In this document: in pieces, positions 3,718 to 48,756 of the stretch
How the letters are laid out: the number at the start of each line of letters is the position of its first letter
Numbering within the stretch: the stretch's first letter is position 1
NCBI GenBank assembly: GCA_041984925.1
Contig: JBHIXF010000012.1
Span: forward strand, 34,029-98,028
Direction of reading: 5' to 3'
DNA length: 64,000 nt
Source: Comamonas sp.
Lineage (GTDB): Bacteria; Pseudomonadota; Gammaproteobacteria; Burkholderiales; Burkholderiaceae_C
Made by a program: the position numbers and the translations under genes
The notes under the pieces: model-generated
Database searches by the model: none
What the model was told of the DNA's origin: nothing
The model's input: the letters and a program-made list of their open reading frames with translations, nothing else

Positions 3718-3942
3718 TGTCTCCTCCTGGTATGCCCTGCATCAGGGCGTCAAAAAAAGGCCGGCCCACTCTTGGCGGGCCAGCCCACAAAATTCAGGAA
3801 TGCCACTTCCAGGGTGGCTGCCTGCCCGCCTGGAGTACAAAGGCCCGCCGCCCCCCTCGCGCAAGGCGGCAGGGGCGGCGGGCCGGGCAGGCAATGGTCT
3901 GTGGCATCAACCGTCCTGGAACACGAACGTCCGCGCTTCGGC

Positions 3943-31176: not shown

Positions 31177-32082
31177 TCAGGCGGGGAAGACGCCCGTGGA
31201 CAGGTAGCGGTCGCCGCGGTCGCAGACCACGAAGACGACGGTGGCGTTGCGCTCGCGCTCGGCGATCTGCTGGGCCACCCAGCAGGCACCGGCGGCCGAG
31301 ATGCCCGCGAAGATGCCTTCCTCGCGCGCCAGGCGGCGCGCCATGTCCTCGGCATCGTCCTGGCCCACGAGCACGGTCTCGTCGATCAGCGAGCCATCGT
31401 AGATCTTGGGCATGTATTCCTCGGGCCACTTGCGGATGCCGGGAATGCGCGAGCCCTCGGCCGGCTGGGCGCCGACGATGCGGACGGCGGGATTCTTTTC
31501 CTTGAGGAACCGGGCCACGCCCGTGATCGTGCCCGTGGTGCCCATGGCGCTCACGAAGTGCGTGATCTCTCCGCCGGTCTGCTCCCACAGCTCGGGGCCC
31601 GTGGTTTCATAGTGGATGCGCGGGTTGTCCGGGTTGGCGAACTGGTCGAGCACCACCCCCTTGCCCTGGGCCACCATCTGGTCGGCCAGGTCGCGCGCAT
31701 ATTCCATGCCGCCGCTCTTGGGCGTGAGGATCAGCTCGGCGCCATAGGCCTTCATGGTCTGGGCGCGCTCGATGGACAGGTCCTCCGGCATGATCAGCAC
31801 CATGCGGTAGCCCTTGATCGTGGCCGCCATGGCCAGCGCAATGCCGGTGTTGCCCGACGTCGCCTCGATCAGCGTGTCGCCGGGCCGGATCTCGCCGCGC
31901 TCTTCGGCGCGCCGGATCATCGACAGGGCCGGCCTGTCCTTGACCGAGCCGGCCGGGTTGTTGCCTTCCAGCTTGCCCAGCACCACGCTGCCACGCTCCT
32001 GGCGAGACTGCGCACCAATGCGCTGCAATGCCACCAGGGGCGTGCGGCCGATGGTGTCCTCGATGGTCGGATAAATTTTCAT
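31177..32082 (-). CDS. cysM: Cysteine synthase B (O-acetylserine sulfhydrylase B)
   Basis: Near-collinear with the remembered E. coli CysM sequence (KLEGNNPAGSVKDRPALSMI, IEATSGNTGIALAM, GTTGTITG, CDRGDRYLSTGVF). Start at MKIYPT (32082); an upstream ATG at 32100 is also possible. Confidence 0.92.
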   Translation of the reverse strand: MKIYPTIEDTIGRTPLVALQRIGAQSRQERGSVVLGKLEGNNPAGSVKDRPALSMIRRAEERGEIRPGDTLIEATSGNTGIALAMAATIKGYRMVLIMPEDLSIERAQTMKAYGAELILTPKSGGMEYARDLADQMVAQGKGVVLDQFANPDNPRIHYETTGPELWEQTGGEITHFVSAMGTTGTITGVARFLKEKNPAVRIVGAQPAEGSRIPGIRKWPEEYMPKIYDGSLIDETVLVGQDDAEDMARRLAREEGIFAGISAAGACWVAQQIAERERNATVVFVVCDRGDRYLSTGVFPA

Positions 32083-32121
32083 AGCCTTACACTGTGCCAT
32101 AATTCGCCCCTGCGCTCAGTA

Positions 32122-32206
32122 GCCCGGGTGGTGAAATTGGTAGACGCAGGGGACTCAAAATCCCCCGCCGCAAGGCGTGCCGGTTCGATTCCGGCCCCGG
32201 GCACCA
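32122..32206 (+). tRNA. tRNA-Leu (anticodon CAA), CCA encoded
   Basis: 85 nt: acceptor GCCCGGG/CCCGGGC, anticodon loop CU-CAA-AA, long variable arm (CGCCGCAAGGCG), T-arm GCCGG-TTCGATT-CCGGC, 3' ACCA. Terminator at 32266-32289. Confidence 0.95.
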
Positions 32207-32265
32207 TCGCTTTGATGCTATCAAAGCAATAGCTACAGGCGCATCATAGGATCAACCGTTGCCGC

Positions 32266-32289
32266 AAAGACCCGCCAGGGTCTTTTTTT
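32266..32289 (+). terminator. Intrinsic terminator after tRNA-Leu
   Basis: AAAGACCC-GCCA-GGGTCTTT stem followed by a T-run (7 consecutive T at 32283-32289). Confidence 0.75.
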
Positions 32290-32491
32290 ATGCCCGTCCA
32301 TCTTCGTGGCTGCTTTGGCAGCCCGGCCGCAGGCGGCTTGCCCGGCTTGCGCCAGGCCCAGCTTCGAATGCCTTACGGGTCCGGCGGCATCGCAGGCGTG
32401 CTAACCTGGGCATTGCTTGAGAAGGGTTGGACTTCCACCCAAGTTTGCACTCACCTTCCTCATCCAGCCCCCCAACCACCCCGGAGAAGGC

Positions 32492-32890
32492 ATGCAACAC
32501 CCGCTCGAGTACTTCCTTTACCGCAGCAAACTGGCCCCGGGCACGGACGCAGCCTGCGTCGCCAGAATCATCAAGACCGCCAGGCAATTCAATGCCGAAG
32601 CCGACATCACCGGCATGCTGGTCTTCGATGGCGAGAATTTTTTCCAGTATCTCGAAGGTGTGCCGCATCAGCTGTACCCGCTGATCGAGGCCATCGCCCA
32701 GGACACGCGGCATGTCGGCTTCACGCCCCTGGAGCGCAGCCCGTGCGCCAGGGGGCGCCGCTACGGCGGCTGGTCCATGGCCTACCTGCAGCTCGACGAT
32801 GCCAGCGGGCTTGCCGAACTCGCCGAGCTCACGCCCACCAGCGCATTGGGCAAGATGGCACAGCTGGCAACGCTGGTCGATGCCCATTGA
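32492..32890 (+). CDS. Short BLUF-domain blue-light photoreceptor
   Basis: 132-aa product from the ATG at 32492 (GGAGAAGG upstream). BLUF signature residues: FLYRS (Tyr), FN...ADITGML, FFQYLEG (Gln), DTRH, GGWSM (Trp/Met). Confidence 0.88.
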   Translation: MQHPLEYFLYRSKLAPGTDAACVARIIKTARQFNAEADITGMLVFDGENFFQYLEGVPHQLYPLIEAIAQDTRHVGFTPLERSPCARGRRYGGWSMAYLQLDDASGLAELAELTPTSALGKMAQLATLVDAH

Positions 32891-32957
32891 TTGCCACCGC
32901 CCCATCCACGTCCCAAGCCCCCAAACCAGGGTATAATGCGCCCCCTGCGCTCAAAGA

Positions 32958-33022
32958 GCCTGGGGATTCGGAGTCCTGGCATGTCGATCATGCCGCCGAT
33001 GGGACTGCGGCCCTGGACACCA
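32958..33022 (+). ncRNA. Candidate tRNA-like small RNA (degenerate cloverleaf ending ACCA)
   Basis: The element follows TATAAT at 32932-32937. Its leader nearly copies the tRNA-Leu leader. A 7-position acceptor-like stem (one mismatch, two G-U pairs) closes three hairpins. The 3' end reads ACCA. Terminator at 33032-33073. No canonical D- or T-loop sequence. Confidence 0.4.
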
Positions 33023-33031
33023 GATGATGGC

Positions 33032-33073
33032 CAGCCGGAAAAGCGATCGCTGCTTTTTCGGCTGTTTCTTTTT
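33032..33073 (+). terminator. Intrinsic terminator after the tRNA-like element
   Basis: CAGCCGGAAAAGC...GCTTTTTCGGCTG (about 13 bp) followed by TTTCTTTTT. Confidence 0.75.
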
Positions 33074-33463
33074 CGCCCCGCGGCTGCCGCATCAGTGGCC
33101 GCGCACCTCCTGCCCGAACCTGCCGCCCTGCCCCAGGGCGCGCAACGCATCGCGGCCTTTCCGTCGACACGAATCCACGCCCCATCGCCTTGGGCGGGAT
33201 GTCCCCTGCGCGCCTTTCACCGAGAATCAGGAAAAGCTGTGCACAACTTCACCTGCCGGCAGCCGGAGCGACGCGCTTGCGCGCACAGGACAGCCCGCCT
33301 GCATCACCGCGCAAGCCTGCCGATGCGAGCATGCATTGGCCCAGCCCTTGTGCATTTTTCTGAAATTCCATATTGAAATCAAACACTTGAAAATTTGACT
33401 TCTTTCCAGGCAGCAGGCACACGCGCTGCTTCTCCCTCGGACCAGGTCGCCGGAACACCCATG

Positions 33464-48219: not shown

Positions 48220-48330
48220 GGTGCTCTTTCGATAGGAGACTGATGAATCAGGGCGCGCGCCATGGCGCCGCATGGCGCGGCGCAGCCCCGGATGGAGCCC
48301 GGGACGGCACGCCTGCCATGCAGGTGCTGC

Positions 48331-48493
48331 GCGATCTCTTTCATCCGGACTGTGACCGTCGGCTCTGGCATCTCACCAGATCTGCTGACCCCGGCTGGCC
48401 TTGCGGCCGGCCGGGCGCTCGCGGGCTCCTGCCAGGCCCGACAAGGCCTTGCAGATACCGCCGGTGGGGAATTCCACCCCGCCCTGAGAACGC
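48331..48493 (-). promoter_or_regulatory. FMN riboswitch (RFN element) aptamer
   Basis: The minus strand reads GCGTTCTCAGGGCGGGGTGGAATTCCCCACCGGCGGTA...AGCCCGCGAGCGCC...GGTCAGCAGATCTGGTGAGATGCCAGAGCCGACGGTCACAGTCCGGATGAAAGAGATCGC. This matches the conserved RFN core and P1 pairing (GCGTTCTC/GAGATCGC). It ends 111 nt upstream of the ribH start. Confidence 0.92.
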
Positions 48494-48756
48494 TGCTTCG
48501 CGGCATGCCGACTGCACGACGCAAAGACAGGGGCCATTCTATCGCCGTGTGCAGGCTGCTGCAGCCCATGGCATCGGCGGCGCAGTCCCGCAGCCGGCGT
48601 GCGGCAGTTCCGACATCCGCCGCGCACCCAGGCCCGCACAATCTGCCTGTGCCCTGGCGCGGGGCCCATGCATCCAGCCGCCAGGTCAACCGCCGGAGCG
48701 GGTCGAACGTCATAGGAAAGACCCCCACAGGAACCGCGCCTTTGCCCGGACACACC

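Follow-up and report, generated by a model that had tools for sequence, protein, structure and literature searches.

A probable decayed second copy of tRNA-Leu(CAA), and possible young small RNA, at the border of an insertion in a Delftia-related Comamonas genome

The stretch of DNA considered here, referred to as the window, comprises 64,000 nt of contig JBHIXF010000012.1 from Comamonas sp., and all positions are counted within it. Downstream of an intact tRNA-Leu(CAA) gene and of a gene for a BLUF-domain protein, the window carries a 65-nt element (32958-33022) preceded by a -10 box and followed by an intrinsic terminator, which a sequence-only reading had described as a selected, tRNA-like RNA with a CCA end. 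Comparison with related loci leads us to favour, with modest confidence, the view that this element is a decayed second copy of tRNA-Leu(CAA), which is probably transcribed and possibly represents a young, lineage-restricted small RNA. Its origin as a tRNA-Leu duplicate at the border of an insertion is very likely; its transcription is somewhat likely, and a function of the resulting RNA is a possibility to which we give slightly less than even weight. The sequence-only reading did not include the ancestral terminator of tRNA-Leu, the nature of 32207-33022 as an insertion with a relic of a phage arm, or the sister lineages in which the same promoter precedes shorter and different bodies. The locus is organised as follows:

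32076..32121, + strand: promoter of the intact tRNA-Leu (TTTTCA, 16 nt, TGTGC-CATAAT, from the promoter scan) and its 18-nt leader, overlapping the start of the divergent cysM gene
32122..32206, + strand: tRNA-Leu(CAA), the intact and functional proximal copy (ARAGORN; Rfam RF00005, 53 bits)
32207..32265, + strand: relic of a phage or integrative-element left arm with decayed TAGGCGCA-type repeats, from a temperate element targeting tRNA-Leu
32266..32292, + strand: intrinsic terminator brought by the insertion (20 bp at 32266-32285, terminator scan), which now ends the tRNA-Leu transcript
32492..32890, + strand: BLUF-domain gene, cargo of the insertion (Pfam PF04940, E=1.7e-22)
32927..32957, + strand: copy of the tRNA-Leu -10 box (TATAAT, 32932-32937) and leader (gcgccccctgcgctcaaaga), the most conserved part of the unit
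32958..33022, + strand: 65-nt body that opens with the 5' acceptor strand of tRNA-Leu and closes with a diverged tRNA 3' end, the interior between them being unrecognisable; no tRNA or Rfam match
33023..33074, + strand: ancestral tRNA-Leu trailer and intrinsic terminator (terminator scan), also present directly after tRNA-Leu in relatives

Insertion between tRNA-Leu and its ancestral terminator

The stretch from the -10 box of tRNA-Leu to its 5' acceptor strand, leader included, recurs at 32932-32964, as the sequence-only reading had noticed: the 12-mer CCCCTGCGCTCA occurs exactly at 32107 and 32942, and the local alignment that includes it, ATAAT.CG(C)CCCCTGCGCTCA, reaches a score attained by none of 300 shuffles. 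The similar geometry that had been pointed out is likewise borne out, since CATAAT (32098-32103) lies 18 nt ahead of tRNA-Leu and TATAAT (32932-32937) lies 20 nt ahead of the GCCTGGG that opens the element at 32958. For comparison, a CysM scan with one genome per species provided 80 Comamonadaceae loci, and further loci were gathered via BLUF homologues and via the small gene downstream; exact look-ups with two CysM start variants gave no match. In nearly all of the 80 loci cysM and tRNA-Leu(CAA) are divergent neighbours, the tRNA sequence is identical in most of them and its promoter motif ctgtgccataat is kept across them. The window is nearest to Delftia, its CysM being 96% identical to that of D. 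acidovorans and 95% to that of Delftia sp. PS-11, and it is the promoter-leader-acceptor regions of Delftia tRNA-Leu genes that give the best matches anywhere to the 5' part of the duplicated unit (25-26 of 30 positions), the matched leader being specific to Delftia. A general promoter and discriminator motif of the genome was considered and rejected: CCCCTGCGCTCA together with a -10 box is found at only two sites in the 64 kb, and a third near-match of CCCCTGCGCTCA, at 2561, has no -10 box.

The relatives also reveal where the transcription unit of tRNA-Leu originally ended. In D. acidovorans (L003) and Comamonas composti (L005), a terminator formed by AGCCGAAAAAGC..GCTTTTTCGGCT and a T-run lies 10-12 nt after the ACCA of the tRNA, and the same terminator follows the element in the window; it is indeed as strong as had been claimed, with a 14-bp stem at 33032-33064 and a T-run reaching 33074. 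Empty sites of this kind, in which tRNA-Leu runs straight into the same trailer and terminator, are also present in L222 and in the metagenomic Delftia contigs L122, L154, L156, L166 and L175. A metagenome scan by the terminator pattern proved too unspecific, with 120 matching stretches reported, and the Delftia-like loci among them, five in number, were all empty sites. Because the same terminator directly follows tRNA-Leu in the relatives, this terminator and its short trailer represent the ancestral 3' end of the tRNA-Leu transcription unit, and the 816 bp at 32207-33022 of the window are thus an insertion between the tRNA and its terminator. This position also decides how the 3' end of the element is to be read. 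The resemblance to the tRNA 3' end that had been noted earlier (CCGGCCCCGGGCACCA in tRNA-Leu, GCGGCCCTGGACACCA in the element) holds at 13 of 16 positions but is not by itself above chance in the window, where a chance 12-mer inside BLUF scores equally; the homology of 33007-33022 follows instead from its location relative to the ancestral terminator. An exact 12-mer, GGCCCCGGGCAC, common to the tRNA 3' end (32193-32204) and the BLUF coding sequence (32533-32544), was judged to be a chance repeat, and hence 12-mer repeats alone are weak evidence in this G+C-rich DNA.

Occupied sites consist of two common border modules, left and right, around a cargo that varies as follows:

window: BLUF only
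L203 and L204: DUF333 and BLUF
L205 and L334: ParE/HTH, DUF333 and BLUF
Delftia sp. PS-11 group (L004 and L210-L219) and L221: an H-NS-family gene (the L220 contig ends ahead of its cargo)
L206-L209: none

BLUF is absent from L003, L004 and L206. In the larger insertions (L205, 281-851; L334, 3566-3895), a pair made up of a ParE-like toxin and an HTH antitoxin is followed by a second terminator of the type aagaccc..gggtcttttttt, and the frame of the L334 toxin is apparently broken by a stop.

The left module, which spans 32207-32292 in the window, points to a temperate element. Window positions 32207-32268 are identical at 41 of 62 positions to the left arm of attP in the viral contig L277, similar arms are found after tRNA-Leu in L007, L011, L017, L062 and L079 and in many IMG/VR contigs, and the terminator brought by the insertion is kept as aagaccc..gggtcttttttt in L004, L203, L205 and L206. 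Directly after tRNA-Leu (32207-32265 in the window; also in L004, L203 and L205) lies a hairpin whose sequence varies while its pairing stays (ctttgatgctatcaaag, ctttgacgctgtcaagg, cttgcagccatgcaag, cagctg..cagctg); it is followed by GCGCATC and the terminator, and would be co-transcribed with tRNA-Leu as a 3' trailer. The tRNA-Leu 3' end itself is present in 104 IMG/VR contigs, which marks this tRNA gene as a busy integration site of which the window keeps the stump of one element. In many viral sites of the attP or attR type, where the upstream flank is not tRNA, identity extends 28-36 nt further 5' (mostly 32-34 nt), and the att core measures about 57-59 nt, from GGGACTCAAAAT in the anticodon stem to CCA. 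At the far border, the last 16 nt of this core repeat are recognisable in the window (13 of 16 positions) and 28 nt in L220 and L221. No integrase gene was found in the 816-bp insertion, where BLUF is the only gene, nor among the cargo of the relatives (DUF333, ParE/HTH and H-NS); the ORF beside attP in phage L277 gave only a sub-threshold Phage_integrase match.

Forms and constraint of the right module

The right module, taken here as the -10 box with its leader (31 nt) plus the body (65 nt), 96 nt in the window, occurs in five forms, all of which run from (a)aacaggN-TAYAAT through a GC-rich discriminator ending in GCCCCTG and a body to a diverged tRNA 3' end, behind which come the host trailer and the terminator; the stem and T-run of the terminator are kept in all variants. 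Forms 1-3 (the window; L203, L204, L205 and L334; L206-L209) have the same 20-nt leader and a body of 61-65 nt, and forms 4 (PS-11 group) and 5 (L220 and L221) have a leader 10 nt shorter and bodies of 35-42 nt. In form 5 the tRNA-Leu T arm and acceptor strand (GCCGGTTCGGTTCCAACCCCGGGCACCA) are still recognisable, and so is the trailer gagatgac, which is also the trailer of the empty site L222. Comparison between clades leaves only three common parts, namely -10 box, discriminator and 3' end, and the sequence upstream of the -10 box is not conserved among variants.

Within the clade carrying BLUF, the module evolves more slowly than neighbouring silent sites. Between the window and its closest relative, L203, 86 of 96 module positions are identical (90%), as against 52 of 85 four-fold sites (61%) in the flanking BLUF and 71-aa genes (p=8e-6); identity is 29/31 for the -10 box and leader and 57/65 for the body, the BLUF gene is 78% identical, and the spacer just upstream of the -10 box, at about 58% and with indels, is unalignable. 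The modules of L203 and L205 agree at 96 of 96 positions against 77 of 96 four-fold sites (p=1e-6), their terminators matching at 47 of 52, and L334 is identical to L203 over all 150 positions of module and terminator, with BLUF identical at 367 of 399; that is, the module is the same in three genomes whose BLUF genes differ by 8-13%. L220 and L221 show one mismatch in their 64-nt module against 9.7% divergence overall. Change is slowest from the -10 box through the leader to nt 13 of the body, and the leader is identical in the window, L203, L205, L206 and L334.

Such a rate, slower than that of silent sites, argues against free decay, and to this extent the earlier claim that the element is a selected RNA rather than a decaying pseudogene gains support, although its bodies differ between clades. 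The alignment of orthologous loci, proposed earlier as a check on the helices, shows constraint on the module within clades but gives the helices no covariation support, and D. acidovorans and other relatives lack the unit. The supposed improvement of the -10 box to consensus turned out to be a peculiarity of the window, as TATAAT occurs there only and all relatives have TACAAT.

tRNA, relic or small RNA

The element is almost certainly not a working tRNA, and the earlier statement that it is not a normal one stands. ARAGORN and Rfam were applied to the window and its relatives at both gathering and permissive thresholds. At the window locus, ARAGORN reports tRNA-Leu at 32122-32206 only, and Rfam yields no tRNA or other family in 32850-33150 even at E<=10; the sole listing near the element, CcsR1 with 10.4 bits and E=7.1, is at chance level and lies downstream of the terminator. 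Neither Rfam in L203, L206 and L220 (E<=1) nor ARAGORN in the elements of L203, L205, L220 and L221 gave any match, so that the hit to a known family envisaged beforehand was encountered neither in the window nor in its relatives. A D arm and a T-loop sequence (GTTCRANYC) were looked for in the 65-nt body and are absent, L220 and L221 retain GGTTCGGTTCC with the T stem broken, and the body interior of forms 1-3 is no closer to the tRNA-Leu interior than shuffled sequence. Alignments consistently place GCCCGGGGATTC on CGCAGGGGACTC, which may be interpreted as the placement expected after deletion of the D arm. The interior contains a conserved 6-bp hairpin, GGCATG..CATGCC, at 32978-32994. A small protein was also considered and rejected: no ribosome-binding site precedes the frame that opens in TATAATG, and most changes among variants are non-synonymous.

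It is very improbable that the element instead works as a tRNA-like four-way junction, cut by RNase P at 32958 and ending in a 3' CCA, which would make it a 65-nt substrate or decoy of RNase P, the CCA-adding enzyme or a synthetase, or a primer. Such a role would agree with the leader and 5' acceptor strand being the best conserved parts, and a cloverleaf can be drawn in which 91% of cells are paired over an alignment of four rows, representing three different bodies; its three arms could, as a matter of interpretation, match those of a class II tRNA without D arm, namely its anticodon, variable and T arms. However, at minimum energy the 65 nt fold into a rod-like hairpin and not a four-way junction (z = -1.6; 14 of 200 shuffles fold as well), the consensus fold of the variants is rod-like too, the T-like helix (helix 4) is only 79% paired and broken in L203-type sequences, tRNA models and the T-loop sequence fail to match as described above, and the sister lineages are without any junction. 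Moreover, the CCA end reads CCG in L203, L204, L205 and L334, and the acceptor-stem pair 33-91 (alignment columns) is an uncompensated C-A mismatch in the window, L203 and L205 and a gap in L206. Among forms 1-3, differences lie mostly in loops and include one compensatory G-C to A-U pair; none of the changes in the three body variants is compensatory for the cloverleaf, although with only three variants covariation cannot separate cloverleaf from rod. Since the CCA is not conserved and the acceptor and T-like mismatches are uncompensated, the cloverleaf with a CCA end, both parts of which had been put forward earlier, is not supported as a selected feature. Hardly credible, in turn, is the notion that the right module is the right arm of the phage or island itself with an ordinary attR repeat, its likeness to the host promoter and leader being coincidental. 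It is true that AATAATCGCCC-like strings lie beside the att core in phage right arms, and that GGGACTG in the 3' part of the element resembles GGGACTC at the 5' edge of the att core. Yet alignments to phage arms remain at background (median 7, 90th percentile 8.4) when Delftia tRNA-Leu promoters score 14.5-16, two IMG/VR pattern scans over 2.9 million viral contigs did not find the module, and the matched leader is, as noted, restricted to Delftia.

More weight, though still short of probable, is due to the possibility that the element is a neutral relic, that is, a dead distal pseudogene whose -10 box and terminator persist because little time has passed, whose conservation stems from recombination, gene conversion or low mutation, and whose transcript would be noise. 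Several observations speak for it and, by the same token, against a maintained RNA. The body interiors of the PS-11 group and of L220 and L221 are unrelated to that of the window, no conservation of the body is seen between lineages, and its length falls from 65 to 35-42 nt; among PS-11-type genomes that are 99.5% identical, three of the 19 mismatches over 5.2 kb fall, clustered, in the body. Covariation is lacking as well, with an RNAalifold covariation term of 0.06 and two pairs broken in L206, and the promoter has no -35 element, present or conserved, and no TG-extended -10 box, and was not called by the promoter scan. Divergence along the locus is mosaic: four-fold sites of lrgB are 87% identical, and the contrast between the window and L203 drops to p=0.012 when all four genes are considered, so that a recombination tract or a mutational cold spot may explain it. 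Finally, the conserved block runs about 150 nt past the terminator, and part of the constraint may thus not concern the RNA of the element, and the absence of the unit from D. acidovorans and others shows that it can be dispensed with. A neutral relic is, however, difficult to reconcile with the identical 96-nt modules of three genomes whose BLUF genes have diverged, flanked by terminators at 47/52 and by an unalignable upstream spacer, as a recombination tract would need to stop exactly at the module edges. Nor does it account readily for TACAAT (TATAAT in the window) and GCCCCTG being kept across all five variants, or for a module leader that is invariant in four genomes of the clade while the leader of the true tRNA, where readable, differs between the window and L206.

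Proposed origin, neighbouring features and significance

The favoured reading, a decayed second tRNA-Leu copy that may have given rise to a small RNA, would start from the ancestral order cysM, promoter, tRNA-Leu, 10-nt trailer and terminator. DNA of a temperate phage or integrative element targeting the tRNA would then have entered by Campbell-type recombination, carrying a copy of the host tRNA gene that began just upstream of the -10 box, a breakpoint that would leave the copy without a -35 element. This host copy may have been acquired through aberrant prophage excision of the specialised-transduction type; alternatively, a tandem duplication of the tRNA may have preceded the phage insertion. 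Tandem tRNA-Leu copies do exist in the family, as Comamonas halotolerans (L015, 3613-3955, - strand) has the order tRNA-Leu, tRNA-Met(CAU)-like gene, terminator and tRNA-Leu; in C. jiangduensis (L018) there are two tRNA-Leu copies with the same spacing as in L015, the sequence between them not having been read. The outcome of integration would be an intact proximal tRNA-Leu, the left-arm relic with its new terminator, the cargo, and a distal copy resting on the original trailer and terminator. Redundant beside the proximal gene, this distal copy would have followed its own course of decay in each lineage, and its D arm, anticodon arm and T loop would have disappeared.

Transcription would proceed from the retained -10 box, which lies 41 nt past the BLUF stop codon, or as the tail of a BLUF mRNA, and end at the ancestral tRNA terminator; since the terminator scan found no terminator between BLUF and the element, a read-through transcript of BLUF would end in the element. 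The predicted product, of about 130 nt, would consist of a rod-like or branched hairpin and a U-tailed terminator and be unable to act as a tRNA. In the clade carrying BLUF, this RNA appears to be maintained by selection that acts most strongly on the first 40 nt, a pattern that corresponds to a small RNA with a 5' seed. It is nevertheless unlikely, in our estimation, that the element already is a regulatory small RNA recently born from a duplicated tRNA gene, in which the former tRNA promoter and leader would serve as promoter and 5' seed under purifying selection in one Delftia-related clade. Since the seed duplicates the leader of tRNA-Leu, it complements the 5' untranslated region of the mRNA for cysteine synthase (cysM), with a predicted duplex of -34 kcal/mol. 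The RNA could therefore act on cysM in trans or, alternatively, on targets linked to the co-transcribed BLUF blue-light sensor. This cysM pairing follows trivially from homology, and L206 does not maintain it; when the window was scanned for trans targets, the only outlier was the antisense strand of the leader of tRNA-Leu, the next matches falling within the expected extreme of 12,800 windows.

Two further features border the locus:

31177-32100/32082, - strand: cysM (PALP domain)
33075..33231, no strand assigned: conserved non-coding block past the terminator, 80-95% identical within the clade (identities in 40-nt bins)

The cysM start is probably the ATG at 32082 (window 32083-32150, - strand; ribosome-binding site taagg), on the opposite strand and 40 nt from the tRNA-Leu gene, so that the 5' untranslated region of cysM would lie antisense to the leader of tRNA-Leu, and possibly also to the tRNA itself. 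Past the terminator, 33075-33300 contains an imperfect inverted repeat with 21-nt arms that are 86% complementary (33193-33213 and 33279-33299), as well as the motifs gccttgggcggga and ctgtgcacaactt, which also occur in D. acidovorans and PS-11. Elsewhere in the family, Comamonas phosphati, Acidovorax soli and others (L016, 3410-3962, - strand; L012, L020, L023 and L047) have a cysM-adjacent tRNA-Leu(CAA) whose anticodon loop is split by an insert of about 240 nt. The insert resembles a group I intron of the Azoarcus type (GTCAAAyTCGGCGAA .. GAAGGTGTAGAGA .. CCTAAGGC .. GCTATGG), the score of the Rfam model Intron_gpI being only 22.5 bits (E=0.0017), and about 225 nt upstream of it lies an extra, promoter-bearing copy of the 5' tRNA half; ARAGORN calls no tRNA at this locus. 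In Curvibacter and Hylemonella (L038, ~3778-3880; L057, ~3725-3825; L082, ~507-608; all on the - strand), a conserved element within about 100 nt after tRNA-Leu ends in a tRNA-Leu-like T arm and acceptor strand, ahead of which stand two hairpins whose stems differ between genera yet stay paired (GCGCAC/GTGCGC versus CGCACAC/GTGTGCG). It received neither a tRNA nor an Rfam call and may be another retained tRNA-Leu relic. Farther along the window, an FMN riboswitch (RFN element, Rfam RF00050, 98.8 bits) occupies 48329-48495 on the - strand.

Literature searches found no published description of the locus or the element, and its closest parallels are of a general kind. Displaced tRNA fragments are well known, as attL and attR direct repeats, at the borders of prophages and islands residing in tRNA genes, and the locus fits this class of integration scars: the inserted DNA begins precisely where the tRNA ends, relatives have empty sites, the border next to the tRNA keeps an attP-arm relic, and at the opposite border a diverged tRNA 3' end is joined to the original trailer and terminator. 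What is unusual is that the far-side copy adds the -10 box, leader and 5' acceptor strand of the host gene, which att repeats do not; in addition, only 16 nt (window) or 28 nt (L220 and L221) of the core of about 58 nt are left, and the integrase gene is gone. Duplications of host genes flank a prophage when aberrant excision is followed by re-integration, as in specialised transduction of the lambda dgal type. Such an event would leave a host segment in two copies on either side of phage DNA, with a breakpoint that may fall anywhere; here it falls just ahead of the -10 box, which would account for the missing -35 element. No phage structural or integrase genes survive, however, and the route is one that we infer.

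Small RNAs of the type I 3'UTR class (DapZ, MicL) possess their own promoter near a stop codon and share the terminator of the mRNA, and 3'ETS-leuZ is a spacer RNA from a tRNA operon of E. coli. The element would resemble the former as a short promoter-to-terminator unit close behind the BLUF stop codon, using the terminator that would end the BLUF mRNA, with a conserved 5' part, a variable middle and a U-tailed terminator; unlike them, the unit also occurs without an upstream gene (L206). With 3'ETS-leuZ it shares an origin in a leucine-tRNA transcription unit, but it derives from a duplicated tRNA gene and not from a spacer. Eukaryotic tRNA-derived non-coding RNAs, such as BC1, 4.5S RNA-H, tRNA-derived SINEs and mascRNA, have internal Pol III promoters and spread by retroposition. 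They parallel the element in that a tRNA gene copy keeps its transcription signals while tRNA function is lost, whereas the element is a bacterial locus, present in a single copy, whose -10 box lies upstream.

The novelty of the locus is modest unless expression and function are demonstrated. If the element is only a relic, it still offers a clear example of how a tRNA copy with its own promoter can end up stranded on the original terminator when an element integrates at a tRNA gene, and it shows that such fragments should not be taken for new tRNA-like genes. If, on the other hand, the constraint on the module reflects function, the element would be a rare documented case of a bacterial small RNA gene arising from a tRNA gene duplicate, and the intermediate and alternative decay states kept by sister lineages would make the birth of a small RNA testable in culturable Delftia strains.

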